Shown piece by piece: positions 8,659 through 45,966 of a stretch of DNA of 64,000 nucleotides. Origin of the DNA: a bacterium. GTDB taxonomy: Bacteria; UBA8248. The notes under the pieces are model-generated. The model was given only the letters and a program-made list of their open reading frames with translations, was not told where the DNA came from and ran no database searches. The DNA lies in the NCBI GenBank assembly GCA_965200245.1, contig CBDATS010000004.1, positions 416,001 through 480,000 of the forward strand, read 5' to 3'. How positions within the stretch are numbered: position 1 is the stretch's first letter; each line of letters starts with the position of its first letter. A program made the position numbers and the translations under genes.

Positions 8659-9153
8659 ATGCCGGAAAGACCGAACACGCCGCAAGTTATCCTCCGCCAT
8701 ATCCAGGGCACGCAACTCCAGATGCTCACCACCACGGGAAAGCACTCCTACGTGCTCGACGAACCCGAAACCCGCGGTGGGACTGACCTCGCCGCTACGC
8801 CTTTCGAGTTCTTCATCGCGGGACACGCGGGCTGAGGCCTCTACACGCTGCTGGGAGCAGCGAAGGCCAAGGGCATCCAGATTGACGACGTGGAAGTCCA
8901 CGCGGAGTTCAAGCGCAACATATCTCCCGAATTCCACGCGGATTATCACGCGGACCCCGAACGGAGAAAACTCTCTATCGGCGTTATTCGCACAAACTAT
9001 TACATTCACGGCGACGTGTCCGAAGAGCAAAAGGCAGAACTCCTCGACGAACTCGCCAACTGCCCCATCCACAACACCCTGATGACGCCGCCAAAACTCG
9101 AGGAACGCATCGTCGTTCTGGGCGAGGATGAAACCGCGCCAACAGAAATTTGA
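8659..9153 (+). CDS. OsmC/Ohr-like selenoprotein (164 aa, Sec at codon 59)
   Basis: RBS GAGGAG; DEP..GGTD.AATPFEFFIAGHAG-TGA(8833-8835)-GLYTL continues in frame to NCPIHNTL; TGA occupies the first catalytic Cys position; hairpin follows. Confidence 0.88.
8836..8868 (+). promoter_or_regulatory. SECIS-like hairpin 1
   Basis: GGCCT ctaca CGCTGCT ggg AGCAGCG a AGGCC directly 3' of the TGA. Confidence 0.78.
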
Positions 9154-9187
9154 CTTGGAGAGACAGGAAACCGCTCTTAAATCAGGG

Positions 9188-9661
9188 TCAGTAGGAAACC
9201 TTCTCTTCCATCTGCGCCCACAGATTAAAGGTTTCCAGTGCTTCATCTTTCAGGAGTCGAGTTGCTTCGAGCTTTCTTTCGCCAACCGGCAGGGAGATTT
9301 CCTTGTAGAGAAATTCATCGGAAAACCCGATTGCATCGGCTTCGACGATGGTGTTCCCGTAATACATTTTCTCGATTCTCGCCCAGTAAATGGCGCTCAG
9401 ACACATCGGGCACGGCTCGCAACTTGTGTATATCTCACAACCTGACAAATCGAAATTTTTCAGTTTCGCGCTCGCCGCCCGAATGGCGAGCATCTCGGCG
9501 TGAGCGGTGGGATCGCAAGAAGACGTCACCCGGTTCGCACCTTCGCCGATAATCTCACCGTGCTTGACGACAACGGACCCGAAGGGCCCGCCGTGCCCCT
9601 CCCTCACGTTCTGGGATGCGATCGCTATCGCCCTTCTCATGAAAGATTCCGAATTCGTCAT
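9188..9661 (-). CDS. guaD: Guanine/nucleoside deaminase (cytidine deaminase fold)
   Basis: GGPFG, DPTAHAE, SCEPCPMCLSAIYWA, GFSDEFLY. Confidence 0.85.
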   Translation of the reverse strand: MTNSESFMRRAIAIASQNVREGHGGPFGSVVVKHGEIIGEGANRVTSSCDPTAHAEMLAIRAASAKLKNFDLSGCEIYTSCEPCPMCLSAIYWARIEKMYYGNTIVEADAIGFSDEFLYKEISLPVGERKLEATRLLKDEALETFNLWAQMEEKVSY

Positions 9662-9862
9662 TTTTTCATCTCCCGGTTGTGCCCACCCATACGCTGTCGT
9701 TTTCTTCTCACCGCGGTTTCGGTTTTCCCGGCATCCGTTCCATTATAGCTTGCTTTTTCGGATAGTTTACATTCATTTTGTAAACTCTCCTTTCATAGTT
9801 CCAAAGGGAGCCTGTAGCAAAAGAGACGCCACTGCGTAAAATCCAAAACCGAAAAGGAAGAG

Positions 9863-10768
9863 ATGATGAAAATCGGATTTATCGGACTGGGAAAAATGGG
9901 AGCCGGCATGGCGGCCAACCTCCAGAGGGCGGGCTATGAACTCATCGTCCACGATATCGTGCGTGATGCGGCGGTGGAGCACATCAAGCGCGGCGCGCTG
10001 TGGGCAGAGACCCCCGCAGAGATGGCTCGCGCGTGTGAAATCATCTTCACTTCTCTGCCCGGTCCCACAGAAGTCGAGAACGTAGCCACGGGGCCGAACG
10101 GAATTCTCGAGGGCATCGGCGCACGAAAAGTCTACATCGACCTGAGCACGGGATACCCCGCAATCATCCGCAGAATTCATGAGAAATTCACGGAAACAGG
10201 CGCACACATGCTCGATGCCCCCGTAAGCGGCTCCACCATAGGCGCGAACACGGGGCGCCTGGCCATTATGGTGGGGGGTGAGGAGGAGGTTTTTGAACGC
10301 TGCAAGCCCCTTTTCGATGCCATCGGCGATCAGCCTACCTACACCGGACCGGTCGGAACGGGCACCGTGTGCAAACTCGCGCACAACTGCCTGGGCTACG
10401 GCATTCAGGCCATTGCGGCGGAGTGCTACTCCCTCGGCGTCAAGGCGGGCGCAGCTCCCGAGGTTTTGGCTGAAACTATTCGAAACGGGGCGGTAGGTAG
10501 AGGAGTGCACTTCCACTACATCTTCCCCGACACTTTCTTCAAAGGAAAATTCGACGATCCCCACTTTCCCATCAAGGGCGCGGTGAAAGACGTGAGCCTC
10601 GCGCTCCAGCTCGCTCGTGAGCACGACGTGCCCATGACGATAGGAAACATCGCCCACGGGGAGCTCGTCACGGGCTTGAACCGCGGCTGGGGAGAGGATG
10701 ACGCGAGGCGTGCCATGACGCTACAGGAAGAGCGGGCGGGCGGTGTAAAGATGAGAATTTCAGAATAG
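9863..10768 (+). CDS. NAD(P)-dependent beta-hydroxyacid dehydrogenase (3-hydroxyisobutyrate dehydrogenase family)
   Basis: IGFIGLGKMG, DAPVSG, CKLAHN, KDVSLA. Confidence 0.9.
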   Translation: MMKIGFIGLGKMGAGMAANLQRAGYELIVHDIVRDAAVEHIKRGALWAETPAEMARACEIIFTSLPGPTEVENVATGPNGILEGIGARKVYIDLSTGYPAIIRRIHEKFTETGAHMLDAPVSGSTIGANTGRLAIMVGGEEEVFERCKPLFDAIGDQPTYTGPVGTGTVCKLAHNCLGYGIQAIAAECYSLGVKAGAAPEVLAETIRNGAVGRGVHFHYIFPDTFFKGKFDDPHFPIKGAVKDVSLALQLAREHDVPMTIGNIAHGELVTGLNRGWGEDDARRAMTLQEERAGGVKMRISE

Positions 10769-10780
10769 GAGATAATTCAA

Positions 10781-11791
10781 GTGAAACACGGAATCGCCAT
10801 GCTGCCCCCTGCGCCTGATACCTACGCGCACTGGTGCCGACTCTCCGAGGAAGCAGGTTTTGACGTTATCTGGGTGCCGGACTCGCAGTCCCTCTACCGG
10901 GAACTTTACGTCTCATGCACTATCTGTGCGGCGAACACCACACGCGTCCTCCTCGGGCCGAACGTCACCAATCCGATGACGCGACACCCAGCGACGGCGG
11001 CGAGTGCCATTGCCACAGTGGACGAATTTTCAGGCGGCCGTGCGCTGTTCGGTATCGCGACAGGCGATAGCGCCGTCTTGAACCTGGGTCTACGCCCCGG
11101 TCGTGTGGACGAGATGCGCGATTACGTGCTCGCCATGCGCGGGATGCTCGAAGAGGGAATTGCCCATTACCAGGGAAAACCCTGCACCCTTAAGTGGCAT
11201 CAAAAGCGCATCCCGCTTTACATCGCCGCCGAGGGACCGCGCACCATCCGCCTGGCAGGCGAGATTGCAGACGGCGTCACCATCGGCACTGGCCTTACAC
11301 CTGAGGTGGTGGCGGACTCCCTCACCTGGCTGGAGGAAGGCGCGAGAAAATCGGGTCGAAAGCTGGACGATATCGACATCTGGTGGCTCGCCAAGGTGAA
11401 TGTGCTGGCAGACGGCGAGAGCGCCCGCGAGGAGATTCGCATGGCGTTGGCCGCGAGTGCGCACCATGCCTTTCGTTTCACTCTGGAGGACAAGCGGGTG
11501 CCTTGGGATCTTCGCTCCGCCGTCGAAACCCTCAAAAAGGAATATGCCTTTCATGAGCACGAGATGGTGGACAAGCAGACGAACGCCGAACTCGTGGACA
11601 GGCTCGGCCTTCGCGAATACCTGCTCGATCGCTTCGCCATCGCAGGCGACGCTGCGGAATGCGTGCAACGGCTCCACGAACTCGAAGCGACGGGTGTCGG
11701 GGCCTTGAGAATTGCCGCCCACGTGCACGACAAACCCGCATTTATCCGGACATGGGGCCGCGAGATAATCGGCGCAACCAAACAACCATAG
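10781..11791 (+). CDS. LLM-class (Mer-like), probably F420-dependent oxidoreductase, paralog 1
   Basis: WVPDSQ, VTNPMTRHP, GIATGDSA, AAEGPRT..LAGEIADG. Confidence 0.88.
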   Translation: MKHGIAMLPPAPDTYAHWCRLSEEAGFDVIWVPDSQSLYRELYVSCTICAANTTRVLLGPNVTNPMTRHPATAASAIATVDEFSGGRALFGIATGDSAVLNLGLRPGRVDEMRDYVLAMRGMLEEGIAHYQGKPCTLKWHQKRIPLYIAAEGPRTIRLAGEIADGVTIGTGLTPEVVADSLTWLEEGARKSGRKLDDIDIWWLAKVNVLADGESAREEIRMALAASAHHAFRFTLEDKRVPWDLRSAVETLKKEYAFHEHEMVDKQTNAELVDRLGLREYLLDRFAIAGDAAECVQRLHELEATGVGALRIAAHVHDKPAFIRTWGREIIGATKQP

Positions 11792-11802
11792 AGGACGCCT
11801 TT

Positions 11803-12804
11803 ATGAGACACGGTATTTCGTTCAGACCGCCCGATACGGATTCGTTCTCCCGCTGGTGTAAGTGCGCGGAAAAACTCGGCTTCGATGCGGTGTTCATACC
11901 CGACACACAATCCCTCTACCGGGAAGTCTACGTCTCATGCGCGATATGCGCGATGGAGACGAGCGAGATCATATTCGGCCCGTGCGTCACGAATCCCGTC
12001 ACGCGCCATCCGGCGGTGGCTGCGAGTGCCATCGGCACCATCAGCGAGCTATCGGGCGGGCGCGCCTTCTGGGGAATCGCCACGGGTGACAGCGCGGTGT
12101 TGAACTTGGGGTTACGACCCGCGAAACTTGCCGAGATGCGCGAATACATTCTCGCGGTACGGGGGATGCTCGAAGAAGGAAGCACCGAGTACAAGGGGAG
12201 GCCCAACCGGCTGAGCTGGCATAATTCCCACATTCCGATTCACATCGCTGCAGAAGGCCCCAAGACGCTGCGCCTGGCAAGCGAGGTGGCAGATGGCGTC
12301 ATTATCGGAACAGGCCTCATTCCCGAAGTCATCGCTGACACGCTCTCCTTCATCGACGAGGGTGCCAGGAAGTCCGGTCGAAGGGTGGAGGATCTGGACC
12401 TCTGGTGGCTGGTAGACGCCCACGTGGATGCGGACGGCGAGCGCGCCCGCGAGGACATCCGCACCGCTCTCGCCGCAAGCGCGCATCACTCGTTCGCCTT
12501 CACGATGGAGAACAAGCGAGTCCCCAAAAAACTCGAGGCTGGCATCCGCGCGCTGAGAGATGGATACCAAACCTCCGAGCACGGCTTTATAGACAAATCG
12601 AACAACGCTGCGCTCGTGGACGAATTCGGCCTCAGGGAATATCTGGCAGAACGGTTTGCCATCGTCGGCACGCCCGGAGAATGCCGAAAGAGGATCGAAT
12701 ATTTGGAGAACCTGGGCGTCAAGGGGCTTCGCATCAACAACAACCTGCCCGACAGGACGGCCTTCATGAACACCTGGGCCATGGAGGTGAGAGGAATCGA
12801 ATGA
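11803..12804 (+). CDS. LLM-class (Mer-like), probably F420-dependent oxidoreductase, paralog 2
   Basis: FIPDTQ, VTNPVTRHP, GIATGDSA, AAEGPKT; RBS GAGGA; colinear with paralog 1. Confidence 0.88.
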   Translation: MRHGISFRPPDTDSFSRWCKCAEKLGFDAVFIPDTQSLYREVYVSCAICAMETSEIIFGPCVTNPVTRHPAVAASAIGTISELSGGRAFWGIATGDSAVLNLGLRPAKLAEMREYILAVRGMLEEGSTEYKGRPNRLSWHNSHIPIHIAAEGPKTLRLASEVADGVIIGTGLIPEVIADTLSFIDEGARKSGRRVEDLDLWWLVDAHVDADGERAREDIRTALAASAHHSFAFTMENKRVPKKLEAGIRALRDGYQTSEHGFIDKSNNAALVDEFGLREYLAERFAIVGTPGECRKRIEYLENLGVKGLRINNNLPDRTAFMNTWAMEVRGIE

Positions 12805-12879
12805 GTATCGACACCCAAGCGATGCGAAAAGGCAACACCCGATTCATGAGCAATCGTAATTTACCTATAGAGATAGAAC

Positions 12880-13333
12880 CCCTCGATTCGAGTGCGGCTC
12901 ATGAATCTTATAATCCCGTCAACTCCTCATATTTTGAGAGTTGCGCATCAGACATATGGAATTCCTTCATCTCAGCATAGGTTGCGGTTGTAAAATGCAT
13001 TGCATCCGCAGGCTACAAACTCCATCTCCGAGAGATACCTTTCTCTCATGAGACGCCTGGAATCTCGTTGTAAACGCTCATGCACTTCCACCAAGGTAAC
13101 GGCACGGCGATCCATCCACATCGAATCTATCTTGGCTTCAAGCACAGGGTTCCTGTGCCTGCCCCTTTCTATGGTGTCATACGCCACCTCGGCAATCGAC
13201 CACATGGATGTTACTATTTGACACTCACCTTGACGCGATTCTGACACTAACGCATTCAGGATGGGCAACCTGCTCTCTGCACATCGATATAAGGCAGAGA
13301 AACATCGGCATCCCAATAGTAAGTATCAGCCAT
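12880..13333 (-). pseudogene. Frameshifted PIN/VapC-like toxin gene
   Basis: MADTYYWDADV / ...IVTSMWSIAEVA... / WSL*PADAMHFTTA..EFHMSD; PIN acidic motifs spread over successive frame segments; start overlaps the upstream stop. Confidence 0.7.
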
Positions 13334-14096
13334 CACGCAACCGCCTAATCGTGACTTCTGGCAATTCCGCGTCTGGCTTCAACAGCAGAATTGCGCGCGC
13401 CTTCGTGTAGTCTCCTTCCTCCGAAATTGGTGTGATTTTACTGACTTGCCGAACTGCTATCGGGTGCCCATCGGCCGGGTTGCGATTCACCAGTCCTTCC
13501 ACGATAGCGTGTTTTCCCCAAACTTCCCTCATAATATCCTCTTGGCCTGATTGCAAATAACACGACACCGGCCGGTCAGCCAGAACGTCATAGAGGGTGA
13601 ATCGCAAAACGTTTCGCTTTGTTAATGTCTGGACTTCCCCCTCTACCGCGCCAAAAGCTACGGCCTTTACATTTCCGGGCAGATTTAAACTATTTTTCGC
13701 CGCCCTCGGCTTTCCTCCAGGAGGATTATTCAAGATTACCGTTTCCTCTTGCGTCTCGAACCGGATTCGTTTGACGCCATTTCCAACCAAGCGTCCAAGT
13801 TCCATCGCTGGGCGGGAAATTTTCCGTCCACGACCAATCTGGACATTCTCGCTAAGCGCTCTGCCAACGTCATTGTATCCACGTACTACCCGTTCGACCC
13901 TTTCCGATTGAGGGCTAGACCCTGTAATGGTCACCAATGCGCTCCCAGGCTGCAGGTCTTCGATCCGCCACTCGATACCATCCCCTTCCTCTGCTGTTAG
14001 CGCATGAACGAGGCTATGCAGTGATTTTACTGCGGTAGCGAAAGTCTCAAAGGTGACATCGCCTTCCAGCACCAGTGTAATCGTGTCAGGAGCCAT
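13326..14096 (-). CDS. Hypothetical protein (256 aa), putative partner or antitoxin of the PIN gene
   Basis: Intact ORF in an AT-richer patch, translationally coupled to the PIN remnant. Confidence 0.7.
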   Translation of the reverse strand: MAPDTITLVLEGDVTFETFATAVKSLHSLVHALTAEEGDGIEWRIEDLQPGSALVTITGSSPQSERVERVVRGYNDVGRALSENVQIGRGRKISRPAMELGRLVGNGVKRIRFETQEETVILNNPPGGKPRAAKNSLNLPGNVKAVAFGAVEGEVQTLTKRNVLRFTLYDVLADRPVSCYLQSGQEDIMREVWGKHAIVEGLVNRNPADGHPIAVRQVSKITPISEEGDYTKARAILLLKPDAELPEVTIRRLRDG

Positions 14097-14370
14097 TACT
14101 CGCCCCCATATTGGGTTTCCAGAGGATATGGAATGGATGGATATCCTAACCAGATATCAATATGCCTAAGCCCAAGGTTTTGAAATTGGCGGATCAATTA
14201 CTCAGTTCAGCCTAAAACAACCCCAAAATACAACACTGATTCGAGAAGCGGATGGAGTTGTCGCTGCAAAAACTCCCTATTCCCTTAGGCAAAACCTTCA
14301 GTTAGAATAGCACAAATGCTCGAAAAAATGAATTTGGCCTTCCCGAAAAACCTCGCAAAGGAGGGTGGAC

Positions 14371-14925
14371 ATGAGCGAAATGACGAAGGAGAAACAAAGG
14401 ATTCTCGTCTATGAGCCTGTGGCGGAGGCTTCGGGAGAGAACGCGGCCATGGCTACGCGGCCCGAGAGCCTGAACGGCAAAAGCGTCGGCCTCATCAACA
14501 ATACAAAGGATTTTACGGAAGAGATTTTCGATGTGATGGGTGCCGTGCTTGAAGAACAGTTTCCGGGTGTGCGAGTCGTACGCTACAGGAAGGAATCCGT
14601 GAGCGGTGCATCGCCCTCCCTCATGGAGCAGGTGGAGGGAGAGTGCGACGCTGTGGTCTCTGCGCTCGGCGACTGAGGCTCGTGCACATCGTGGAGTATC
14701 CACGACAGTGTCGCCTTCGAGAAAAGAGGGCTCCCCACGGTCACCATCGTCACCGACGCATTCGAGAACTACGCGAGGCAGCTTACCAGGCTCCACAAGA
14801 TGCGCGATCTTCCGCTCGTTACCCTCCCCCACCCCATTGCGGGCAGAAAGCGCGAGGAAGTGGATGCAATGTCCGCGAAGGCGAGCCCATATCTGATACC
14901 CGCCCTCACGCAGGCGAGCGGCTGA
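14371..14925 (+). CDS. UGSC-family selenoprotein (184 aa, Sec at codon 102, UxxC)
   Basis: RBS AAGGAGG; DAVVSALGD-TGA(14674-14676)-GSCTSWSIHDSVAFEKRGLPTV... open to TGA 14923-14925. Confidence 0.92.
14677..14715 (+). promoter_or_regulatory. SECIS-like hairpin 2
   Basis: GGC..CAC a TCGTGGA gta TCCACGA ca GTG..GCC directly 3' of the TGA. Confidence 0.78.
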
Positions 14926-14932
14926 TTTTTCC

Positions 14933-16033
14933 ATGAGTGAACCAAAGCACGCCCGCCAGATTGCACTTGATGAAGACACAGGAACAATATTCGACCATTT
15001 CTACGAGGAGGGTTGGACGGACGGGCTTCCCATCATCCCGCCGACCGAGGAACGCGTCGCTGAAACCATGCGTTTCACGGATTACGCGCCGCACGATGTC
15101 ATCGCCCACATTCCACCCAGAAACGCACCCGCGACAGTAGAACTCATCGCCATCAACGCCGTGATGGCGGGCTGCAGGCCAGAATACCTGCCCGTGCTTA
15201 TCACTGCGGTGCAGGCCATGACGGAGCCGGCTTATAACCTTTACGGTCGCCAGACGACCACCCATCCGGGTGCGCACATGATGATCGTCCACGGGCCGAT
15301 GAGAAACGAACTTGAGGTCAACTGCCGCCAGAACGTGTTCGGCCAAGGCCAGCGCGCGAACGCGACGCTTGGCCGCGGGGTGAGGCTCCTGATGATGAAC
15401 GTGGGCGGCGGCATCCCCGGTGTGACGGACATGGCCACCCACGGGCATCCTGGAAAATATTCCTACACCATCGGCGAGGATGAGGAAGGAAGCCCCTGGC
15501 CACCCTTTCACACGGGCAGGGGCCTAGCACCCGGGACTTCCGCCGTCACCATGCTCTGCGCCGAATCGCCCCACAACGTGAACGACCTCGTGAGCAAGAC
15601 ACCCCACAAATACCTGGGCACGGCGGCTTCAGCCATGAGCCACCTAGGTGCCAACGGCGTCTACCGAAGCGGGCTTCCAGGCGAGCAGATGCTGGTGCTG
15701 ACCGCCGAAGCTGCTAACTGGCTTTCGGATCAAGGGTGGACGAAGGCCGACGTATCCCAATTCATCTTCGAGAATGCGCGCCAGCCGATTCGCCTCATGC
15801 GAGACCGCGGCGGCTTCGGCATGACACCGCTCGCCCCTTTTGTGAATCTAGAAGAAGACGAGGAGATGGCCCCCATTGTCCCCAGCCCCGGAGGCATCCT
15901 CATCGTCATCGCAGGCGGTCATGGTCGCCACATGCAGGCCGTTCTCACGGCGAGCTACAACCTGAGCGTCACCAAAGCCGTCACCCGCAAAGACGGAACG
16001 CCGATTAAGTCCATGCGGGAGTTCGTGGAGTGA
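14933..16033 (+). CDS. Uncharacterised partner of the UGSC protein (DGLPxxPPT family)
   Basis: GWTDGLPIIPPTEERV, AINAVMAGC.P, RANATLGR, DMATHGHPGKY, EEGSPW; 7 nt after the UGSC stop. Confidence 0.85.
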   Translation: MSEPKHARQIALDEDTGTIFDHFYEEGWTDGLPIIPPTEERVAETMRFTDYAPHDVIAHIPPRNAPATVELIAINAVMAGCRPEYLPVLITAVQAMTEPAYNLYGRQTTTHPGAHMMIVHGPMRNELEVNCRQNVFGQGQRANATLGRGVRLLMMNVGGGIPGVTDMATHGHPGKYSYTIGEDEEGSPWPPFHTGRGLAPGTSAVTMLCAESPHNVNDLVSKTPHKYLGTAASAMSHLGANGVYRSGLPGEQMLVLTAEAANWLSDQGWTKADVSQFIFENARQPIRLMRDRGGFGMTPLAPFVNLEEDEEMAPIVPSPGGILIVIAGGHGRHMQAVLTASYNLSVTKAVTRKDGTPIKSMREFVE

Positions 16034-16069
16034 GGGGGATTACCAGATACCCAAGATATATGAATACCT

Positions 16070-16559
16070 ATGAATCTCTGCCAGATTTTCTTCCGAACCC
16101 ATAACCACCCGCGAACCCGGCTCCCAAGCCTTATAAATCCGTCAAAACAGGTGTTATGAGTTCTTTCGCTCCGAATGTTAAAAACAGCCACGACAAACCG
16201 AAACAAGCCAGCAAAGCGATTACCAAAACCGCAAAACCAAACCATTGACTACGTTTTTGGGGCTTTGTTTGAGAGGCCAATTTCTCTTTGGCGAACTAAA
16301 ACTCGTTCTCATTCCTTTTGCGTGCTCTTTCCAAACCGCTTTTCATGAGATCGTGTCGATCCTGCGGGCTTCAATCTCGCAATATCTCCGGATTAGCCCA
16401 AGGAGGCCCCTGATGTTCAGTGAATCGCAATCCGGGAATGTTTTGAGCCTGAGATATTTCTGCTACAGGATCGGGGTTGGATGGCATCAAGATTCCGGGG
16501 TCTTTGGAAGACTCGTCCGTTTTTTCGGCATCCATGTTTTCAGAGTCGGAATCGGTCAC
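16070..16559 (-). pseudogene. Decayed membrane protein gene (DUF2335-like)
   Basis: Fragments HQGPPWANPEILRD* and SQWFGFAVLVIALLACFGLSWLFL..*GLGAGFAGGYGFGRK broken by stops or frameshifts; AT-rich. Confidence 0.35.
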
Positions 16560-16881
16560 TCACTTCCCTTTCGAATTTGGACACTTCATCAAATGCATAC
16601 ACATCGAACTCGGACTCTGTATCCAGAATGGCTCCGCTCGCCTGCATGGATTCCGAAAAAGCCGCCCAAAGATGATATAGAGCCAATGTGTGCACTTCAT
16701 TTTGGATGGGGTCGTTCTCGCCCAGTTTTCTTTCGAATTCTGAACATAGTTTCTGCAATCTGTTGAGGCTTTCTTCCATCTCATTCAGCGAAGGTCGTCT
16801 TGAGGTTGGATAAAAACGACTGCCGAACATTTCACACTCCTGTATGATTTTTCTTGCCAGATAAACACAGCCTGTATCCAA
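16540..16881 (-). CDS. Hypothetical protein
   Basis: 113-aa ORF in an AT-rich patch; no motif recognised. Confidence 0.35.
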   Translation of the reverse strand: MDTGCVYLARKIIQECEMFGSRFYPTSRRPSLNEMEESLNRLQKLCSEFERKLGENDPIQNEVHTLALYHLWAAFSESMQASGAILDTESEFDVYAFDEVSKFEREVSDRFRL

Positions 16882-17570
16882 AATTTAAAATTAACCAGAA
16901 AGCTCTCCCCTATACATCCACGTTCATACGGAACTGGCCTGCGAGATGAGTGATGAACTTACCTGCGGCATCGCCGCTCTTCCAGCCGCGTGTATCCTCA
17001 GGGAGGGTTATAGTGAGTGAGGCCCTGGAGCCATGATGTGCAATTGCGGGAAAATGCGCACCTGGGCGAAAATCACGCCCCTTGGAAAAAAAAACGCGGG
17101 GCAATCTCTGGCCGCACGTTGACCGCGCCCTTGACTACCTGTAAACCCGTCCGTGAAAAACGATTCAAGTGAAGGCATAGTGTTCGAAATGTTCCTTTTG
17201 GAACCGAGCGCACACTACACACCCCGCATTTCCAGTGATAGGATATGGATTAGCTCATCCAACGCCCAGGATAGTTCTGGAGACGATTGGGGGGTTTCCC
17301 CCGCGAGGAATCCCTGTTTTCCTTGACTGAATAACTGGTTCCGCGCCCTTCGCGGCGCGAAACCATGCAAAGCAGATTGGTGCACGCGTCGGTTCATTAC
17401 GAATATGAAGCCCGAAGAAGTCGGATAAACTTCAACCGGGCACGGCGGGTCAGATGAAATTCCGCCCGCATCTTGAGGACAGCACCTGGTTCGGTGAGCG
17501 GATTATGCCGCAAACCAGAACAAAAACATTTCTCCGATTTTGCTCCAATTTTCAAAGGAGGTTCAAAAAG

Positions 17571-18860
17571 ATGAAACGCTTTGTGTTGGTCCTTTGGGCC
17601 GCGGCGATCATCCTGGCGCCGGGGGCCGCATTCGCGGCCCAGGCTCAGAAGATCGATACCGGAAACACAGCCTGGATTCTGACGTCGACCGCGCTCGTGC
17701 TGTTCATGACGCTTCCGGGCCTCTCGCTGTTCTATGGCGGTCTCGTGCGCGCAAAGAACGTACTCTCCGTGCTGATGCAGTGCTTCGCCATCGCCTGCGC
17801 GGTGTCGATCGTCTGGCTCGTCGTCGGCTACAGTCTCGTGTTCGAGTCGGGTAACGCCTTCATCGGCGGGCTGGGCAAGGCGTTCTTCGCGGGCGTGGGT
17901 GTGGAGTCGCTCTCGGGCAACATTCCCGAGACGGTTTTCGCCATGTTCCAACTCACCTTCGCCATCATCACGCCGGCCCTTATCGTGGGCAGCTTTGCCG
18001 AGCGGATGCGGTTCTCGGCCCTGTTCATCTTCTCCATCGCGTGGGTCATCCTCGTCTACGCGCCAGTGGCCCATTGGGTGTGGGGCGGCGGATGGCTCGG
18101 CGAGATGGGTGCGCTCGATTTCGCGGGCGGCACCGTGGTGCACATCAACTCAGGCATTGCGGCTCTGGTGGCCGCCATCCTCATCGGCCCGAGGCACGGC
18201 TTTCCCACGACGGCCATGCTGCCTCATAACCTGCCTATGGCAGTGACGGGTGCGGGTATCCTTTGGGTCGGCTGGTTCGGCTTCAACGCGGGTAGTGCAC
18301 TGGCAGCCGACGGCGCGGCGGGAATGGCCATGCTCGTGACCCACATGTCCTCGGCAGCGGGCGCGCTCGCCTGGATGTTCGCCGAGTGGATCAAGCACGG
18401 CAAGGCGAGCGTACTCGGCATCGTGACGGGCATGGTGGCGGGTCTAGTCGGCATTACGCCGGCCTCCGGCTTTGTGGGCCCTGTGGGCGCGCTGCTGCTC
18501 GGCGCGATAGCGGGCATTGGTTGCTTTGCAGCCACCAATTACATGAAACAGGTGCTCAAGATTGACGACTCGCTCGACGTGTTCACCGTGCACGGCGTGG
18601 GCGGCATCATTGGCGCGATACTGACCGGCGTGTTCGTCGCCAAGGGATTCGGCGGCGTCGGCCTTGCCGAGGGTGTTGGCATGGGCAAACAGGTTTGGAT
18701 CCAGTTTGTGAGCGTCATTGCCACGCTCGTCTATTCGGGCGTCGTCTCCTTCATCCTGTTCAAAATCGTGGACGCAATGGTGGGCCTGCGGGCCGACGCC
18801 AACGAGGAATCGGGCGGCCTTGACCTCATGATGCACAACGAATCAGCCTATGAACGCTAG
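17571..18860 (+). CDS. amtB: Ammonium transporter AmtB
   Basis: Signal peptide; LVLFMTLPGL, FQLTFAIIT, DFAGGTVVH, WFGFNAGS, DDSLDVFTVHG; RBS AAGGAGG. Confidence 0.97.
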   Translation: MKRFVLVLWAAAIILAPGAAFAAQAQKIDTGNTAWILTSTALVLFMTLPGLSLFYGGLVRAKNVLSVLMQCFAIACAVSIVWLVVGYSLVFESGNAFIGGLGKAFFAGVGVESLSGNIPETVFAMFQLTFAIITPALIVGSFAERMRFSALFIFSIAWVILVYAPVAHWVWGGGWLGEMGALDFAGGTVVHINSGIAALVAAILIGPRHGFPTTAMLPHNLPMAVTGAGILWVGWFGFNAGSALAADGAAGMAMLVTHMSSAAGALAWMFAEWIKHGKASVLGIVTGMVAGLVGITPASGFVGPVGALLLGAIAGIGCFAATNYMKQVLKIDDSLDVFTVHGVGGIIGAILTGVFVAKGFGGVGLAEGVGMGKQVWIQFVSVIATLVYSGVVSFILFKIVDAMVGLRADANEESGGLDLMMHNESAYER

Positions 18861-18876
18861 GCCGCAAAGCGAGTAT

Positions 18877-18900
18877 ACCCCGGGGCCTCGGCCCCGGGGT
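18877..18900. terminator. GC-rich hairpin between convergent amtB and cyclase genes
   Basis: ACCCCGGGGC ctcg GCCCCGGGGT, perfect 10-bp stem; no clear U-tract. Confidence 0.45.
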
Positions 18901-18986
18901 CGCGCACTCCTGCGAAAGCAAAGCTTTCCCGGGCAGGGAACGCAAGTAGAACACTCTGCAACTTCGATTGAAAAGATGATTCCAGC

Positions 18987-20831: not shown

Positions 20832-20948
20832 TCTCGCGTCTCCTGCAGCGGCTCCTGCGAAAAGTATACACCACCGGAGCCTGCGAGAAATCCTGGAATG
20901 TGTGTCGGCCCCCCCACTCCCCTGCTTGCAGAGGCGGAAGTAACCGAC

Positions 20949-21959: not shown

Positions 21960-21984
21960 CGTACCCTCTCCGGCTAACGCCTCC

Positions 21985-27846: not shown

Positions 27847-27873
27847 TGCATCCCTATCATCTTTGTTCAGGAA

Positions 27874-31814: not shown

Positions 31815-31940
31815 AGGGGACCGCGCAGAGACTCGCATCATATATCGTTGCCAGTCCTGTCCCGTCAGTTTCCGTATGGGACTCATGATCCCTCGGAGAT
31901 ATAATCCGCATATTGCGGCCTGATCCACGAGAGGCACCTC

Positions 31941-32351: not shown

Positions 32352-32546
32352 ATCAGATATATTTCAGGTTCCGCAGGAGCAGTTCGAAACGCCGCACTCG
32401 ATACGGAAGATGGCAGGAATTCGCGGGGTGGATCGTCCGGGCAAACCGGATTGTTCAAATGATTCCCAAAGATTGTTCATCGTTGATGATTTCAGGAACA
32501 TATTCATTCAAGCGATTGATTCAATACAAATTACATAACTGATGGG

Positions 32547-33431: not shown

Positions 33432-33444
33432 GAGGAAAGACTAC

Positions 33445-33500
33445 AATATAAGCAACATCAATGCAATGAATTAAATGTTTTAGTTTGCCTTATTTTCAGC
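33445..33500. promoter_or_regulatory. AT-rich divergent control region with a LysR-type T-N11-A box
   Basis: ATAAGCAACATCAAT at 33448-33462, just upstream of the LysR start. Confidence 0.35.
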
Positions 33501-33629
33501 AGCGTGTTATATTTGAAGTCCGTTTCATGAAATCAGCATACGGTATCCATAGGGCACTTTCAGGAATTCCCCATAGAATGTGTGGGGGATTACCCGAGAA
33601 ACTCTCTGAACAAGAAAGTTGGTGAAACG

Positions 33630-38186: not shown

Positions 38187-39630
38187 GCCGACGGGTTTTG
38201 TAGAATTCGGAAGAGAAGCGCCCAAAACGAGGCCGGTGGAAGAGCGTGTCCACGACTGGGACGTTGTCTACCTTCCCACGCCACACGAGACCCTCAAACG
38301 TCAAGGCGCGCGTTGTATGGACTGCGGTATTCCCTTCTGCCACCAGGAATGCCCGCTGGGCAACCTGATCCCCGACTGGAACGATCTGGTCTACCGGGAT
38401 TTGTGGAAAGACGCCATCGACAGGCTCCACGCAACGAATAATTTCCCCGAGTTCACCGGCTGGCTATGTCCCGCTCCGTGCGAGGATTCCTGCGTTCTGA
38501 CCATCAACGACTCTCCGGTGACGATCAAGGAGATTGAGAAATCCGTTATCGAGCACGCCTTCGAACAGGGCTGGGTGAAAGCGACCACGCCTGCGGTGCG
38601 CACCGACAGGAAAGTTGCCGTCGTAGGCTCAGGGCCGGCGGGTCTGGCCGCCGCCCAGCAACTCAACTGGGCAGGGCACTACGTCACAGTCTTCGAGCGG
38701 GATGACAAGCTCGGCGGGCTCATGCGCTACGGGATACCGGATTTCAAGATGGACAAGACCTACATCGACCGCCGCACGCAGCAGATGAAGGAAGAGGGCG
38801 TGACGTTTCGCGTGAACGCGAACGTGGGCGTCGACCCAAAGGTTTCCGAGCTACAGGAAGAGTTCGACGCCATCGTGCTGGCCGCAGGTGCTTTGCAACA
38901 CAGGGATTTGCAGATTCCGGGCCGAGAGCTGGAAGGCATCTACTTCGGCATGCGCTACCTCACCATGCAGAACCGGCAGCTCACGGGCGGGAACATGCCG
39001 GACGAGGAAGTCATAACCGCGAAGGACAAGCACGTGGTTGTCATCGGCGGCGGCGACACGGGCGCTGACTGCGTGGGCACAGCCCACAGGCAGGGGGCAA
39101 AATCCGTCCGGCAGTTCCAGTACCACCCGCGTCCCCCTGACAAGCGGAACCCGTTGGACGACCCGTGGCCGAACTATGCGAACATCTTTCGTACAGCACC
39201 CATGTATGAAGAAGGCGGGGAGCGCATCTTTCAGATTCAGACCCGTCGTTTTCTGGGGGAAAACGGCCATGTGCGCAAAATCGACACCGTAAAGGTGGAC
39301 GAATCGCACGATGATTCTGGAAGGGCCGTCTTCACCGAGATTCCGGGCACGGAGGAGGAAATCGATGCGGACCTCGTGCTCATCGCCATCGGTTTTCAGG
39401 GTCCCGACTGCCATCCCTTGCTGGAAGAACTGAATCTCAAGCGCACCGGGCGTGGCGCGGTAAGCCGCGACGAGCGATGGATGACGAACGCACCCGGCGT
39501 CTTCGTGGCGGGCGACATGATGCGTGGTGCATCCCTAGTGGTCTGGGCGATAGCGGATGGACGCTCCTGCGCCCGCGCCGTGGACGAATACCTCATGGGA
39601 GAATCGCACCTGCCCGCCCCGCTGGAGTAG
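38179..39630 (+). CDS. gltD: Glutamate synthase small subunit
   Basis: [32 protein letters not shown]. Confidence 0.98.
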
Positions 39631-39694
39631 GCGACGTTTCCTGAGGTTTGCGTCCTTCTCGATTCATCAACTTTCGAGAAGCTATCCACGAAAC

Positions 39695-39730
39695 AAGCCC
39701 GGCGAAGGGATCCTCCGCCGGGCTTTTGCT
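39695..39730 (+). terminator. Intrinsic terminator after gltD
   Basis: AAGCCCGGCG...CGCCGGGCTT followed by TTGCT. Confidence 0.6.
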
Positions 39731-39773
39731 TCATCACATGGCTGCAGGAACTCCTGAACAACCGGGATTCACA

Positions 39774-40190
39774 CTAGTTCGCCAGCACCTCGTTCCTGAT
39801 GGGCTCGATATCGAAAACTTCGGGCTTCTTCATGTCCACCGTCACCTTGACGGCGTGCATCTGCTTCACGCCGAATACCTGAAGCACAAATATGTTCGGC
39901 GCTTTTTGGAGGAGCGGACGCGTAATCTTGCATTTGTGGCTGTCCCCGTAGATCAGAAAAACCGGCCTTGAACATATCGGCGTGGACCGCGACCACGATG
40001 GCTCTGGCGGCAACCCCTTTCTCGAAACCTGCGTTCAACCAAGCGCCACGAAGGTGAAGGGCTTATTGGCCGAGGCGACACCCGTCGTCAGCGCGAGCAG
40101 CGCAGCCGCGAAGGACAAGGCACCTAGGCATTTTTCCCAAAGTGATGCGGAATTTTCCATCGAACCCATCCAACTGTCCCCCATGTTTAG
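39774..40190 (-). pseudogene. Internally deleted secreted metallophosphoesterase-like gene
   Basis: Signal peptide + FTFVALG, then AIVVAVHADMF in another frame, then PVFLIYGDSH..VFG..MHAVKVTVD; far too short for the family. Confidence 0.5.
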
Positions 40191-40381
40191 GTCAAAGAAA
40201 GTTACGGCCTCTTCCACGAACGAAGAAAATCTTCCGTTCGACGTTCCTGGCCATTGCGGATCTTGGCACTCAATCGGGGGAAATATAAAAAATATCTCGA
40301 GAGGAAAGGTTACGAACAGGTGACGATTCTATGGACTTACGATAAATCGAGGGTAGGTAGATAATATCCCGGCACCCAAAC

Positions 40382-41260
40382 CTAGTTGCGCCAGCCCAGC
40401 CTGTCCACCATGCGCAGGAGGATATCCGAGCGGTTGAGTGCATACACGTGAAAATGCCTGGCGCCCAGTTCCATCAACTCCTGAATCTGAGCCGCCGCAA
40501 GTTCTGCCGACTTTTCCTGAAACGCCTCCGTGTCATCCTGGTGGGGCGCAAGATACTCCACAACGCTCGGGGGCACGCTGGCCCCGCACTTTCCCGCAAA
40601 ACGCTGCACCTGGGCCACGTCGCGCACGGGCAGGATGCCCGGTGCCAGCGGGATCGTAACGCCCCGCCTCGTCATCTGCTCCATGAACCGCTCCCAGACA
40701 GAAGCCTCGAAAAAGAACTGCGAAGCCGCATAATCGGCACCCTGATCCACCTTGCGGGCAAAGTGATCCATGTCTTCGTTCTTGTCGGGCGTTTCGGGGT
40801 GCCCCTCTGGATAGCAGGCCACGCCAATCGAGGAGAGTCCACCCAGGGTTCTGAGCCACCGGACGAGATCCGCAGCGTAGCGGAACTCGCCGGACACCGC
40901 CTCTTCACGCGTCATGCCCTCAGGGATGTCTCCCCGAAGCGCCAGGATGTCATTCACCCCGTTTTCCTGATAGATGGCCATCAGACGCGAAATTTCCGCC
41001 TCGTTCGCGCCCACGCAGGTGAGATGCGCCACCACGCGGCCCGGATAGAGCCTCGAAAGCTCCAGCACGAGTTCGAGCGTGCCCTCCTGCGTGGAACCGC
41101 CCGCTCCGTAGGTCACCGAGGTGAAGGCGACATCCATCGCGTCCTGAATCGCCGCCACCTCGCGCAGGGTACGATCCACCGCCTTTCGTCCCCTGGGCGG
41201 ATAGAGTTCGATGGAAACGCTTACCCTCTCGGAAACAATGCTCTCGGTGATGGCGGACAA
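40382..41260 (-). CDS. metF: Methylenetetrahydrofolate reductase
   Basis: SIELYPP, SVTYGAGGS, AHLTCV, LALRGD, YPEGHP, SQFFF, HVYALN. Confidence 0.93.
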   Translation of the reverse strand: MSAITESIVSERVSVSIELYPPRGRKAVDRTLREVAAIQDAMDVAFTSVTYGAGGSTQEGTLELVLELSRLYPGRVVAHLTCVGANEAEISRLMAIYQENGVNDILALRGDIPEGMTREEAVSGEFRYAADLVRWLRTLGGLSSIGVACYPEGHPETPDKNEDMDHFARKVDQGADYAASQFFFEASVWERFMEQMTRRGVTIPLAPGILPVRDVAQVQRFAGKCGASVPPSVVEYLAPHQDDTEAFQEKSAELAAAQIQELMELGARHFHVYALNRSDILLRMVDRLGWRN

Positions 41261-41373
41261 ACCGCTACCCTTTCCCTCCGCTCTCGGGCGGACATCGGCA
41301 GAATGAGAGACGCAAAAAACGGGCGCGGGGCGAATCCACCCCGCGCCCAGAAGCACAAACCTCAGGAGCAGGC

Positions 41374-41838
41374 CTAGTTCAGACCCTCAAGCGCCGCGAA
41401 GAGCTTTTCATCGTCGGGTTTCTCGGGCGGAGCCGCCGTCTGCTCCATATAGGCGACATTCCCGTCCTTGTTGACAAGAATCACCGCGCGGTTGCTGAAA
41501 CCCTTGTCGTTCAGCAAGCCATAAGCCGCACACGTTTCCTTGCCGAAAAAGTCGCTCAGTAACGGGAATTCGATGCCGTACTTCTCCGCCCAAGCAACGT
41601 GGGCGAACGGGCTGTCCACGCTGATGCCGATGACCTCGCAGTCGGCGGTGTCAAACCTCGCCTTCTCCTGCTGATAGGCGGGCAGCTGTTCGCTGCATAC
41701 GGAGGAGAAATCGAACGGATAGAAGCAAAGGAGCACGTTCTTCTTGCCACGGTAATCGCTCAACTTGATCGTGTCACCTTCTGCGAGAGTTCTCGGCAGT
41801 TCGAAGTCGGGAGCCGCGTCACCTACGCTCAAAGCCAT
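41374..41838 (-). CDS. AhpE-like 1-Cys peroxiredoxin
   Basis: [19 protein letters not shown] (Cys = TGC), ISVDS, LLSDF. Confidence 0.9.
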
Positions 41839-41851
41839 GGAAAAAATCCTC

Positions 41852-42439
<588 letters not shown>

Positions 42440-42685
42440 TTCGTTTTCTCCTTGATGGGAATGGAATGTTCTGATTCACATGGCAAAAATGAAGCTACAG
42501 AGGCCAATGCCCCTAAAACTTATCGAATCTCCGCAACTCGCATGAGCGGCGATGTGAGAAGCTGCGGATGAATTTTCCGTTTAGCGTAAATTTTCTCTCT
42601 GCCCTGGTTCATGAGCGCGCGTATTCTACTTTCAGGGATCGACTGCGTCAAACCACATCCCAAACAGGAACGGCCCACCATTCGG

Positions 42686-43585
42686 CTATTCCGGTGCGTC
42701 CATTTTCTGTATCTGGTCGAAGTCGCGGTAGAGCAGCGTCAGGTCTTCTTCGATCATCCCCCGATCGACGGCCTTCCTTAAAAACGTGAGCGTGTGCTCG
42801 GCAAGTTGGATGTCAGCACCTCGTCTGCGCCCGATGCCGACGGCGAGGCCGACGTCTTTTTGCAGGTTGTAGATGCGCGCCTGTCCGTTCCACGTTCCCG
42901 AAAGGATGTTGTTCGGAAAACGGTGGCGGCTCGCATAGCTGTAGGCCGTCGAGGCGTTGAAGATGTCGATCATGTCCTCGACACGCATCCCAAGTCGTTC
43001 GACCAGGCGCGCACCCTCGCACGTCGCCAGGAACATCGTGTGAAGTACCATGTTGTGGATGAGTTTCATGGTGTGGCCCGAACCCAATGCGCCCAGATGG
43101 AATATGTGACCCACACAGGGTTTCAGGTATTGCCTCGTGCGCTTGAGGAGTTCTTCGTCCCCTCCGATCATGAGGGTGAGCTTCCCCTCCAGGATATTAC
43201 CCGGACCGCCGCTCATGCCTGCGTCGAGATAGCCCAGCCCCGCACGCTCGGCACGCTTCGCAAGGCGCTTCGTCTTCGCCGGGTCTGAGGTCGTGAGGTC
43301 GTAGATTACGAGGCCTTTCTCCGGATTCTTGAGCAGGCCGTCCTTCCCCTTGAAGCAAATCGCGATTTCTTCCGATGAGGGTACGACGAAGAAGACGACC
43401 GCGCAGGTCTCGCCCATCTCGCGTGGCGTGGCGATAGCCACACCCTCTGTTCCCTCGAACGGTTTGCGCCTCTCCTCCGAAATGTCCCAGATCATCAAGG
43501 GCATCTTCGCCTGGATAAACCTTAGCGCCACGGGACCTCCCATGCGACCCAGGCCGATGACGCCTACGCTCTTTCGTTTCGCCAT
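42686..43585 (-). CDS. NAD(P)-dependent beta-hydroxyacid dehydrogenase family protein
   Basis: IGLGRMG, DAGMSGG, MKLIHN, QKDV. Confidence 0.88.
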   Translation of the reverse strand: MAKRKSVGVIGLGRMGGPVALRFIQAKMPLMIWDISEERRKPFEGTEGVAIATPREMGETCAVVFFVVPSSEEIAICFKGKDGLLKNPEKGLVIYDLTTSDPAKTKRLAKRAERAGLGYLDAGMSGGPGNILEGKLTLMIGGDEELLKRTRQYLKPCVGHIFHLGALGSGHTMKLIHNMVLHTMFLATCEGARLVERLGMRVEDMIDIFNASTAYSYASRHRFPNNILSGTWNGQARIYNLQKDVGLAVGIGRRRGADIQLAEHTLTFLRKAVDRGMIEEDLTLLYRDFDQIQKMDAPE

Positions 43586-43623
43586 GAAATACCCCGGAGA
43601 ATCGAGAAAGTGGAGGAATACAT

Positions 43624-43700
43624 TGGAGCCGACGACCGGACTTGAACCGGTGACCTGCTGATTACGAATCAGCTGCTCTACCTGCCTGAGCTACGTCGGC
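43624..43700 (-). tRNA. tRNA-Thr(CGT)
   Basis: GCCGACG acceptor stem, anticodon loop TTCGTAA, GGTTCAAGTCC T-arm, encoded CCA. Confidence 0.95.
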
Positions 43701-43747
43701 TGGAAAAGCATGGAACCCTGGCGAGGCTCACGTTCCCATGAGGAAGG

Positions 43748-43863
43748 TATTGAACACGCCGCCCCCCCCTTCGTCAAGCCAACGACGGCGCGAGCTCAAT
43801 TCGCGCTGCCGCTTTCACGGTTTATCGAACGGCTTGACTTACGCGCCGACGCATCGTAAATCT
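43748..43863. promoter_or_regulatory. Back-to-back sigma70-like promoters of the two tRNAs
   Basis: Plus strand TTGACT-N17-TAAATC; minus strand TTGACG-N17-TTCAAT. Confidence 0.55.
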
Positions 43864-43874
43864 CTTTTCTCTTC

Positions 43875-43950
<76 letters not shown>

Positions 43951-44113
43951 CAAATCACCCCGAATCCGTTCGGGTTTCATACAATACCTCACAGGAACGC
44001 CCGGCCAACGGCAAGTGAGGGCGGGGGAAGGCTGTGCCCCCGTATCGGGGCTGGTTCGCTCGCCTGTGACCGCTCCCTGGTCGATTTCCGCACCTACAAG
44101 ATGGAGACAGAAT

Positions 44114-44497
44114 ATGGACAACGCCGAGAAGAAGGCCTTGATGGATCAGATGGTCGCCGACCGCGGCTGGGTATTGCCGGAACAGGAGTATTATATCGAA
44201 AAGGACCCCGAATACCACGCCAGGCAGAGCGCGGTGTACAATCACGTCCTCAAGCGCGAGGGGGCACTTTCTGAAAAGATGCGCGAGATCATCACCGTCA
44301 CCGCCCTTTGCGTGCGACTGCCTAGCACGGAGGTGGAAACCTACGTTAAAAATCACATCCGGCGTGCGCTGGACCTGGGAGCCACCGAGGATGAAATATT
44401 CGAGGCCGTGCAATGTCTCATCTTCCCGGCCGGCGGCCCCTCACTGATGATGGGCATCAAGTGCCTACGCGCTGTCCTGGAAGAGCGGAAGACTTGA
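44114..44497 (+). CDS. Carboxymuconolactone decarboxylase (CMD/AhpD)-fold protein lacking CxxC
   Basis: GALSEKMREII, HIRRALDLGATEDEIFEA..GGP. Confidence 0.85.
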   Translation: MDNAEKKALMDQMVADRGWVLPEQEYYIEKDPEYHARQSAVYNHVLKREGALSEKMREIITVTALCVRLPSTEVETYVKNHIRRALDLGATEDEIFEAVQCLIFPAGGPSLMMGIKCLRAVLEERKT

Positions 44498-44529
44498 GAT
44501 TATCAATACCCCTCCCTGGGAGACACTAC

Positions 44530-45267
44530 ATGGACAGAAGCATCTGGGCGACCTGGTACGACCTGCCGAAAGAAGACGAGACCGAATACAACGACTGGCT
44601 CCACCACATCCACATCAAGGACGCGCTCAAGCGCCCCGGCTACATGTGGGCGGCGCACTACGAACTCGTGGACAGGGAATCACCCAAATCCAAGAAAAAA
44701 GATCATCTCGCCTACACGGACGATCCCTCCATCCCCAACGGAACGGAGTTTCTGCTGCTCTTCGGAGGAGCGAGCGCGGAGGTTTTCCTGAGCCCCAACC
44801 CCGCACAGCTTGAGGAATTCTACTCCGATGAGACGAAGACGATGCTTGGCAAAAGAATCGGCGAGCGTACGGGCATCTTCACCGAAGTGGACAGGGTGAA
44901 CGGTCCTGACGCCGCCACGCGTGCTCTGGGCGGCGTGCCCGCGCCTGTCATCCAGATGGGGACATTCAACTGTTTCACGCCCGAGGATGACTTTGACCTG
45001 AGTTCGTGGTACGCGCAGGATCGCCTGCCCGCGATGAAGTACATGCGCGGCTGTGTGGGCACGCGCAAGCTGGTCTCGGTGGCAGGATGGGCGAAACACT
45101 CCATCTTCTATGAGTTCTCCTCGTTGGAGAAAGTTCTCGAACACTTCCCGCGTGCGGACAGGCTCTTCCCGGGAGAGAACGACTGGTCGTACCACGTATG
45201 CCAGCGCCTGCTTCACACGCCCGGCTCGCCCACGCGCGGCAAGCGCATCTGGCCCCCCGTAGAATGA
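44530..45267 (+). CDS. Hypothetical protein with two EthD-like dimeric alpha/beta barrel repeats
   Basis: EYNDWLHHIH....RPG and SWYAQDRLP....RG repeats. Confidence 0.65.
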   Translation: MDRSIWATWYDLPKEDETEYNDWLHHIHIKDALKRPGYMWAAHYELVDRESPKSKKKDHLAYTDDPSIPNGTEFLLLFGGASAEVFLSPNPAQLEEFYSDETKTMLGKRIGERTGIFTEVDRVNGPDAATRALGGVPAPVIQMGTFNCFTPEDDFDLSSWYAQDRLPAMKYMRGCVGTRKLVSVAGWAKHSIFYEFSSLEKVLEHFPRADRLFPGENDWSYHVCQRLLHTPGSPTRGKRIWPPVE

Positions 45268-45282
45268 GCAAGGTGGCCAAGA

Positions 45283-45966
45283 ATGAGTTACATGAAACCG
45301 ATACGGGTCGAGGAGGCGGAAGGCGAGGCCGCGAAACTCTTCGCGGGCGTGACGAAGATGCTTGGTCGGGTGGCGAATTCCTTCGCCGTCATGGCCTATC
45401 AGCCCTATGTCGCCAAGGTCATCCTGCCGCTCACGGTGACACTCATGCGCGAGGGACTGGGCACGGTGCTTCCCACCAGGATCAAGGAAATCGCCGTTAT
45501 CAAGACGAGTCACCTGAACGGGTGCGAGTACTGACTCGGACACAACACGGCGCTCGGTCGAGACGCCGGAGTCACCGAGGAACAGGTACACGAAATCTGC
45601 TCGGACGCCTATCTGGACTCCCCAACGATGAGCGCACGTGAGAAGGCCGCCGTCCTGTGGGCGGAGCACGTAACGCGCAACACCGCCAAGACGCGCGACG
45701 ATGTGTTCGAGGAGGTGCGGCGCCACTTCGATGACCGGGAATTCGTCGAACTCACGATGGTCATAACCTACTTCAACATGAGAAACCGCTTTCAGGATGC
45801 CCTGCGCATTCCGCTGGATGAACCGAAAACGATCTCGGACATCACCATAGGGCACAGGCAGGACCCCGAGAACCTCAAAAACTATCTCGCAGGGGTCGTG
45901 GCGACGTGGCCCGAGAGTTTCCCGGGCCCTGCTGCGGAGAATGAACCTGGGGAGCAACGCGAATGA
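45283..45966 (+). CDS. AhpD/CMD-family selenoprotein (227 aa, CxxU, Sec at codon 84)
   Basis: KEIAVIKTSHLNGCEY-TGA(45532-45534)-LGHNTALG..GVTEEQ..SAREKAAVLWAEHVT..ELTMVITYFNMRNR in one frame. Confidence 0.92.
45535..45579 (+). promoter_or_regulatory. SECIS-like hairpin 3
   Basis: CTCGG acacaaca CGGCG CTC ggtc GAG a CGCCG gagtca CCGAG; GGU apical loop. Confidence 0.82.

Follow-up and report, generated by a model that had tools for sequence, protein, structure and literature searches.

Do the in-frame TGA codons that split three unrelated open reading frames (ORFs) of one bacterial genome end those genes, or are they read as selenocysteine (Sec)? The question is raised by a stretch of 64,000 nucleotides (contig CBDATS010000004.1 of assembly GCA_965200245.1, positions 416,001 to 480,000 of the forward strand; GTDB lineage UBA8248), which we call the window and by whose own numbering its features are given. 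A preliminary description, drawn from the letters alone, had noted TGAs at 8833, 14674 and 45532 in genes that continue with family-consistent sequence, and this was borne out: the protein-family matches span each TGA. We hold, with a probability of about 0.9, that these are three genuine Sec-decoding genes, for an OsmC-like peroxidase, a UGSC-family protein and an AhpD-like protein of the CMD family. Each adds a new member to a known selenoprotein family, with the standard bacterial decoding mechanism.

Under this mechanism, UGA would stand in place of the catalytic or redox Cys codon of each gene, and a stem-loop just 3' of it, within the coding sequence, would serve as a standard bacterial Sec insertion sequence (SECIS) element. 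SelB with Sec-tRNA(Sec) binds the apical loop some 20 nt past the UGA and delivers Sec, and the ribosome avoids termination. The source genome would accordingly need to encode SelA, SelB, SelD and tRNA-Sec; the three predicted selenoproteins would incorporate selenium and would act as peroxide or disulfide reductases.

In-frame UGA codons at conserved cysteine positions

Protein-family matches were judged against the curated or gathering cut-offs of the Pfam and NCBIfam models, and coding potential by a codon-usage score trained on the long ORFs of the window (training mean 0.19). This score persisted across each TGA, with upstream and downstream values of 0.20 and 0.24 at 8833, 0.20 and 0.15 at 14674, and 0.31 and 0.19 at 45532. 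The preliminary description had also assigned the codons to the redox Cys positions of OsmC (first Cys), UGSC (UxxC) and AhpD, which the homologue alignments confirmed: Cys was found in the corresponding column in 18/18 OsmC, 12/12 UGSC and 12/15 AhpD-like homologues. That all three are known bacterial selenoprotein families also holds in the literature. A 2005 paper on the Sargasso Sea described AhpD-like (CxxU) and OsmC-like (UxxT) selenoproteins and counted 27 AhpD-like Sec members; Table 2 of the 2008 Global Ocean Sampling (GOS) survey gives AhpD-like 1 (n = 299), UGSC-containing (n = 255) and OsmC-like (n = 5) selenoproteins; and a 2026 review lists all three families with NCBIfam or Pfam models.

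The OsmC-like gene (8659..9153, + strand) encodes 164 amino acids, with Sec at residue 59 (U59; in-frame TGA at 8833..8835) and a resolving Cys at residue 135. The protein scored 51.6 bits against PF02566 (cut-off 27.5). U59 fell on the column that is Cys in all of the 18 full-length distant homologues aligned, and Cys135, retained in a C-P-I-H motif, on the second conserved column of the family; a Cys is also aligned with U59 in the OsmC structure 9wo1_A (PDB). Exhaustive HMMER searching returned 701 relatives, compared with just two C-terminal fragments from a word-indexed search. All of the close relatives are fragments that break at the Sec codon, some terminating at residue 58 (P0162, 97% identical, and P0168) and others beginning past the Sec residue (P0161 and P0165), whereas full-length Cys-form homologues are at most ~36% identical to the window protein. 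Judged from these comparisons, the gene looks like a diverged, mostly or only Sec-form, clade of the known family. Like the published OsmC-like selenoprotein (PF02566; NF041052), it has an OsmC domain in which Sec replaces the first conserved Cys and the second is kept. It differs in its NF041052 score, which lies below the cut-off, and in its local motif, U-G-L-Y-T, where Thr stands at +4 and not at the +3 of the published UxxT.

The UGSC-family gene (14365..14925, +) encodes 186 amino acids when read from GTG 14365, although the relatives suggest that translation may in fact begin at ATG 14371. Its TGA (14674..14676) specifies U104 in a D-U-G-S-C-T-S-W motif, and this residue aligned with the first Cys of GDCGSCTSW in each of the 12 homologues that span the site. 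The protein scored 144 bits against NF041046 (UGSC_fam; equivalog cut-off 125) and 163.5 bits against PF24696 (cut-off 25); with the same motif and an above-cut-off score, it shows no essential difference from the UGSC-containing selenoprotein family that these models describe. Relatives P0003–P0006 (80–88% identical) and P0045 all stop right after the preceding Asp, and these five truncated proteins span 46–88% identity. An AlphaFold model (mean predicted local distance difference test score, pLDDT, 84; predicted template modelling score, pTM, 0.79) predicts a five-strand alternating α/β fold with U104 at the N-terminus of the third helix. The GOS paper guessed at a thioredoxin-like fold for this family. 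A fold search of the PDB with the model returned generic flavodoxin-like matches only (TM-score ≤ 0.50), and a profile of the family found nothing significant among the sequences of solved structures (E 0.26).

The AhpD-like gene (45283..45966, +) encodes 227 amino acids of the CMD family, of the "AhpD-like 1" type. The preliminary description correctly placed its Sec in the CxxC motif; the precise site is the second Cys, hence CxxU, with TGA 45532..45534 specifying U84 in C-E-Y-U. Scores were above the cut-offs of PF02627 (42.3 against 23) and TIGR00778 (33 against 27.8) and below those of TIGR01926, a peroxidase-related enzyme model (62.8 against 81.8), and NF053654, YciW-related (seleno)protein (77.6 against 310). 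The U84 column in 15 full-length database homologues held Cys in 12, Trp in two and Ser in one, and a Cys is aligned with U84 in the solved structure 2ijc_A. In common with the AhpD-like 1 family (COG2128, CxxU), the window protein has the CMD/AhpD core, Sec as the second residue in CxxC and a SECIS hairpin right after the UGA; it differs in falling under the TIGR01926 and NF053654 cut-offs and in having close relatives with two or three diverged Sec paralogues per genome among the best 80 of 163 matching genomic loci.

This gene was also followed at the DNA level, in the best 80 of 163 matching loci in species-representative genomes (numbered with the prefix L). The codon at the Sec column was TGA in 75/80 loci and TGC in the other five, so the relatives carry TGA or Cys here and not TGG or CGA. 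The nearest loci (76–92% protein identity) lie in 14 metagenome-assembled genomes (MAGs) titled "Nitrospinota bacterium" or plain "bacterium", seven of which show three diverged Sec-AhpD paralogues among those 80 loci; we call these type A (the window's own), B and C. More distant Sec-form records are titled SAR324, Tectomicrobia, Rhodospirillales, Burkholderiales, Acidimicrobiales, Verrucomicrobiales and others. Neither the OsmC-like nor the UGSC protein had a tblastn match in the 80 loci. One type A orthologue (L021) carries a second in-frame TGA, at 10523 (+) on an Arg column (R-F-Q-D-S-L-stop-I-P-L), which could stem from mutation of CGA to TGA, from faulty assembly or from decay of this copy.

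Hairpins downstream of the UGA codons

Each TGA is followed by a hairpin with the layout noted in the preliminary description: the lower stem begins at +1, ACA directly precedes the upper stem, the upper stem opens with (U)CG, and G is the first base of the loop. Hairpin 1 (8836..8868, +) has a 5-bp lower stem, a 7-bp upper stem opening CG and the loop GGG from +18. Hairpin 2 (14684..14711, +) consists of a 4-bp helix and a 7-bp upper stem opening UCG, with the loop GUA from +20; its lower stem from +1 (14675–14717) appears only in a 45-nt fold and is absent from the 60-nt minimum-energy fold. Hairpin 3 (45535..45579, +) has a lower stem from +1, an 8-bp upper stem that opens CG and contains one bulged A, and the loop GGUC from +22, which we take to match the loop of E. 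coli fdhF. Folding energies were −18.1 (39-nt fold), −18.3 and −20.1 kcal/mol for hairpins 1, 2 and 3, respectively, and hairpin 2 had a z-score of −2.47 against dinucleotide shuffles.

All three hairpins fit the general bacterial SECIS model. As given in the 2026 review, that model has a loop of 3–9 nt with G in loop position 1 or 2, a spacing of 16–37 nt after the UGA, a stem of 4–16 bp and an energy of −7.5 kcal/mol or lower; the spacings of 17, 19 and 21 nt and the stems of 7, 7 and 8 bp observed here all lie inside it. In comparison with the bSECISearch consensus, the window loops are 3–4 nt long, with G first and then G or U, and the ACA and CG details are absent from the model; no additional feature has to be invoked.

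The AhpD hairpin could be analyzed further across the genomic loci, which point directly to selection on the RNA. In the 75 Sec-form loci, the codons that form the element are nearly fixed (TCG 100%, GGT 88%, CAA 96%, GCG 100%) and its Leu codon is only ever CTT or CTC. The same codons are minor ones in the genes of the window, where GGT accounts for 19% of Gly, CAA for 23% of Gln and CTT for 14% of Leu codons, and conserved AhpD residues further downstream use three to six synonymous codons. The loop reads GGTC in 64 and GGCC in nine of the 73 loci counted. Positions of the named 7-bp stem were paired in 90.6% of cells, as opposed to 20–60% when the partner strand was slid. RNAalifold run on the AhpD SECIS alignment returned just a trivial 3-bp structure, and the named structure was used instead.

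Competing explanations

The features shared by the three hairpins had been read as a SECIS consensus specific to this lineage, in which ACA 5' of a CG-opening stem, together with a G-first loop starting at +18 to +22, would be recognized by SelB and could be used to mine the genome for new families. The pattern is selective. The window holds 1969 TGA trinucleotides (both strands, any frame); 49 of these are followed by a hairpin of at least 7 bp with a G-first loop of 3–4 nt at +18 to +22, and the further requirement of ACA just 5' of the stem leaves three, exactly the three Sec sites, at an overall ACA frequency of merely 1.2%. A scan of 34 related loci gave 21 matches at 18,757 TGAs, 18 of them at Sec codons. 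The scan proposed earlier thus proved specific. It was also insensitive, since of the 34 Sec-AhpD sites known in the clade the strict pattern recovered just 18. Among the three extra matches, L059 16011 does not share the frame of the long ORF at that position, L036 10752 has the same hairpin, and the third is L080 18173.

The interpretation itself was not supported. In each family, the ACA coincides with a conserved Thr codon: Thr stands at U+4 in 16/18 Cys-form OsmC homologues, the corresponding Thr is invariant in the GDCGSCTSW of Cys-form UGSC proteins, and in AhpD-like proteins the ACA lies in the invariant Asn-Thr codons of H-N-T. It is found in 66/73 Sec-form and in 5/5 Cys-form AhpD loci, across several phyla. 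Within the lineage, L001 has ATA and L021 has ACG at this position. One UGSC relative, P0007, which is frame-shifted over this stretch, implies ACG by a single, indirect inference (its shifted frame reads Val where the corresponding frame of the window reads Ile). The type B Sec-AhpD paralogue of the same lineage has a hairpin preceded by CGC, AGC, CAC or TGC instead of ACA; this hairpin is shifted by three bases (98.2% of cells paired, against 67.9% in the homologous register), contains one compensatory UA-to-GC change and has its loop G in the second position, at +26. Loop G and spacing belong to the general published model, which all three window hairpins meet, and therefore a loop G at +18, +20 or +22 is not lineage-specific. 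The GGUC hairpin of the AhpD gene recurs in Nitrospinota, SAR324, Tectomicrobia, Rhodospirillales, Burkholderiales, Acidimicrobiales and Verrucomicrobiales records and is therefore a feature of the gene family, not of the lineage. We consider a lineage-specific consensus very unlikely; the shared ACA and CG details are best explained as by-products of conserved codons for Thr and of stems rich in GC. Slightly less probable still is that the ACA, though supplied by Thr codons, is a true SelB element layered on the general SECIS. If it were, an ACA-based pattern would find unknown selenoprotein families in these genomes.

A more drastic alternative attributes the TGAs to nonsense mutation or sequencing error and takes the genes for pseudogenes or split genes. 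Gene callers do split all three, and public protein sets hold only fragments for the close relatives: the predicted proteins of AhpD-like, OsmC and UGSC relatives begin or end at these codons. Decay or error would nevertheless have to account for three stops that fall exactly on a catalytic Cys column, that are kept in relatives down to ~50% identity (the AhpD stop in several phyla) and that are each followed by a persisting coding signal and a SECIS-type hairpin. We regard this explanation as having only the slimmest chance of being right.

Some observations weigh against Sec decoding itself. No selA, selB, selD or tRNA-Sec gene was found in the 64-kb window, where an Rfam scan at gathering thresholds reported only two tRNAs, and 50 related loci likewise yielded no tRNA-Sec. 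The stop codon in the OsmC and UGSC relatives is deduced from truncated proteins alone. The OsmC-like protein scored 60.7 bits against NF041052, "OsmC-related (seleno)protein", which falls short of the curated cut-off of 95; for this reason the gene is filed as OsmC-like and not as a member of NF041052. The hairpins were less striking under a stricter control. When each site was recoded synonymously 2000 times, with amino acids kept and codons redrawn, the native 60-nt energy was reached by 69, 178 and 220 recodings (3.5%, 8.9% and 11%) at 8833, 14674 and 45532, respectively, and a permissive SECIS-like hairpin was present in 359, 635 and 961 of them (18–48%). A hairpin alone is therefore not strong evidence, and because these controls were unimpressive we treat the hairpins as supporting, not main, evidence. 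Covariation in the AhpD stem is weak (two pairs with double changes, matched by 17/500 shuffles) because the stem hardly varies. Finally, two public predicted proteins, P0082 and P0085, have Trp at the Sec site (C-A-Y-W). Genomic loci L043, L053, L030 and L039 show identical motifs with TGA at this place, and for that reason the Trp is probably a TGA translated as such by a gene caller.

The same two Trp entries are what would favor TGA being a sense codon throughout the genome (Trp or Gly, NCBI tables 4 or 25), the least credible of these explanations: TGA otherwise serves as a normal stop and terminates 15 of the 40 Pfam-supported window genes, the three discussed here included, which rules out a reassigned code; the homologous residue is Cys and not Trp or Gly; and beyond the three sites only opposite-strand overlaps or same-frame neighbours pass a read-through screen. 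We thus return to Sec decoding as the preferred reading of all three genes.

Genomic setting and selenoprotein content

Coding-score and hairpin screens for a fourth Sec gene in the window gave five candidates, all rejected: 5531, 45265 and 49806 are junctions of same-frame neighbouring genes, and 1918 and 52951 lie in frames opposite real genes. Screening the 34 related loci (648 kb) gave 47 candidates, 34 of which were the seed AhpD sites. Visual inspection found none of the 13 extra ones convincing: their translations were Arg/His-rich and looked antisense or, in the case of L021 10523, the TGA stood on the Arg column described above. The screened loci represent only three syntenic regions, each sampled in many genomes, and this result carries no weight on Sec density genome-wide.

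Two genes adjoin the Sec genes and take no part in the recoding. Eight nucleotides past the UGSC stop begins a gene for 366 amino acids (14933..16033, +), a likely partner of UGSC. It has no Pfam or NCBIfam match. Its neighbours in the Atlas are automatically named thiol-disulfide oxidoreductase or thioredoxin, and in one neighbouring Atlas cluster 16% of the members carry PF24696. The GOS paper describes fusions of UGSC to an uncharacterized conserved domain, to which the 366-residue protein may correspond. The sole homologue of this protein among the 80 loci lies in L015 (36% identical), where no UGSC gene adjoins it. The flanks of this gene pair (12861–14300, −, and 16245–17400) hold only unassigned ORFs, with a G+C content at third codon positions (GC3) of 0.45–0.55 and no family match.

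Directly 5' of the Sec-AhpD gene lies a gene for ~250–284 amino acids (44413..45267, +). Its true start is probably later than 44413, because relatives align only from residue ~34–40. A tblastn search of the 80 loci placed a homologue next to the AhpD-like gene in 29 (L001–L012, L017, L021, L024–L029, L034, L041, L042, L044, L046, L048, L065, L067 and L069), on the upstream side in type A and on the downstream side in type B, with Rhodospirillales records included. The protein has no Pfam or NCBIfam match; Atlas leads point to NIPSNAP, DUF4286 and EthD-like clusters (0.88–0.93). Oxidative-stress genes are found nearby, at 41374–42439 (−) and 44015–44497 (+), and comprise an AhpC/TSA peroxiredoxin, an Fe/Mn superoxide dismutase and a second, Cys-type, CMD-family gene.

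Elsewhere, the window contains a run of coenzyme F420 biosynthesis genes (40–5533, +; 10781–12804, +; 56782–57825, −), with CofH/MqnC-like radical SAM, FrhB/FdhB-like, CofD, CofC and F420 gamma-glutamyl ligase proteins, as well as three luciferase-like monooxygenase genes. An ORF of 485 codons (54642–56099, +) has a GC3 of 0.47, compared with ~0.7–0.8 in the other long genes of the window, and lacks a Pfam or NCBIfam match. The ORFs around it are likewise unassigned, and the region at ~53.4–56.7 kb may be foreign DNA.

The preliminary description had also suggested that the source genome is rich in selenoproteins, and this is plausible. Among the best 80 of 163 loci, the closest relatives are represented by two or three Sec-AhpD paralogues each, which favors such richness. 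Table 2 of BSepDB lists three Nitrospinota- or Nitrospinae-labelled MAGs, assigned to UBA8248 in the GTDB, with 54, 50 and 48 selenoprotein genes, and ranks them among the ten most selenoprotein-rich bacteria; according to the accompanying paper, every species in that database possesses the Sec pathway. Contigs of one BSepDB MAG, FO_M_Nitrospinota_01, are loci L013, L019, L046 and L052 of our set, and all four have TGA at the AhpD site. Its AhpD orthologue is just 66% identical to that of the window, whereas the window's nearest relatives are 88–92% identical. If the source genome is indeed selenoprotein-rich, such richness has already been published.

The analysis leaves the understanding of Sec decoding as it was, since the families, the SECIS model and the richness of Nitrospinota-labelled MAGs have all been published. 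Its practical value lies in annotation. The near-fixed AhpD SECIS hairpin, with its GGUC loop and its distribution over several phyla, is a marker for re-annotating that family. Public protein sets list the three genes, like their close relatives, as truncated halves, and the peroxide-defence capacity of these uncultured bacteria is therefore under-called.

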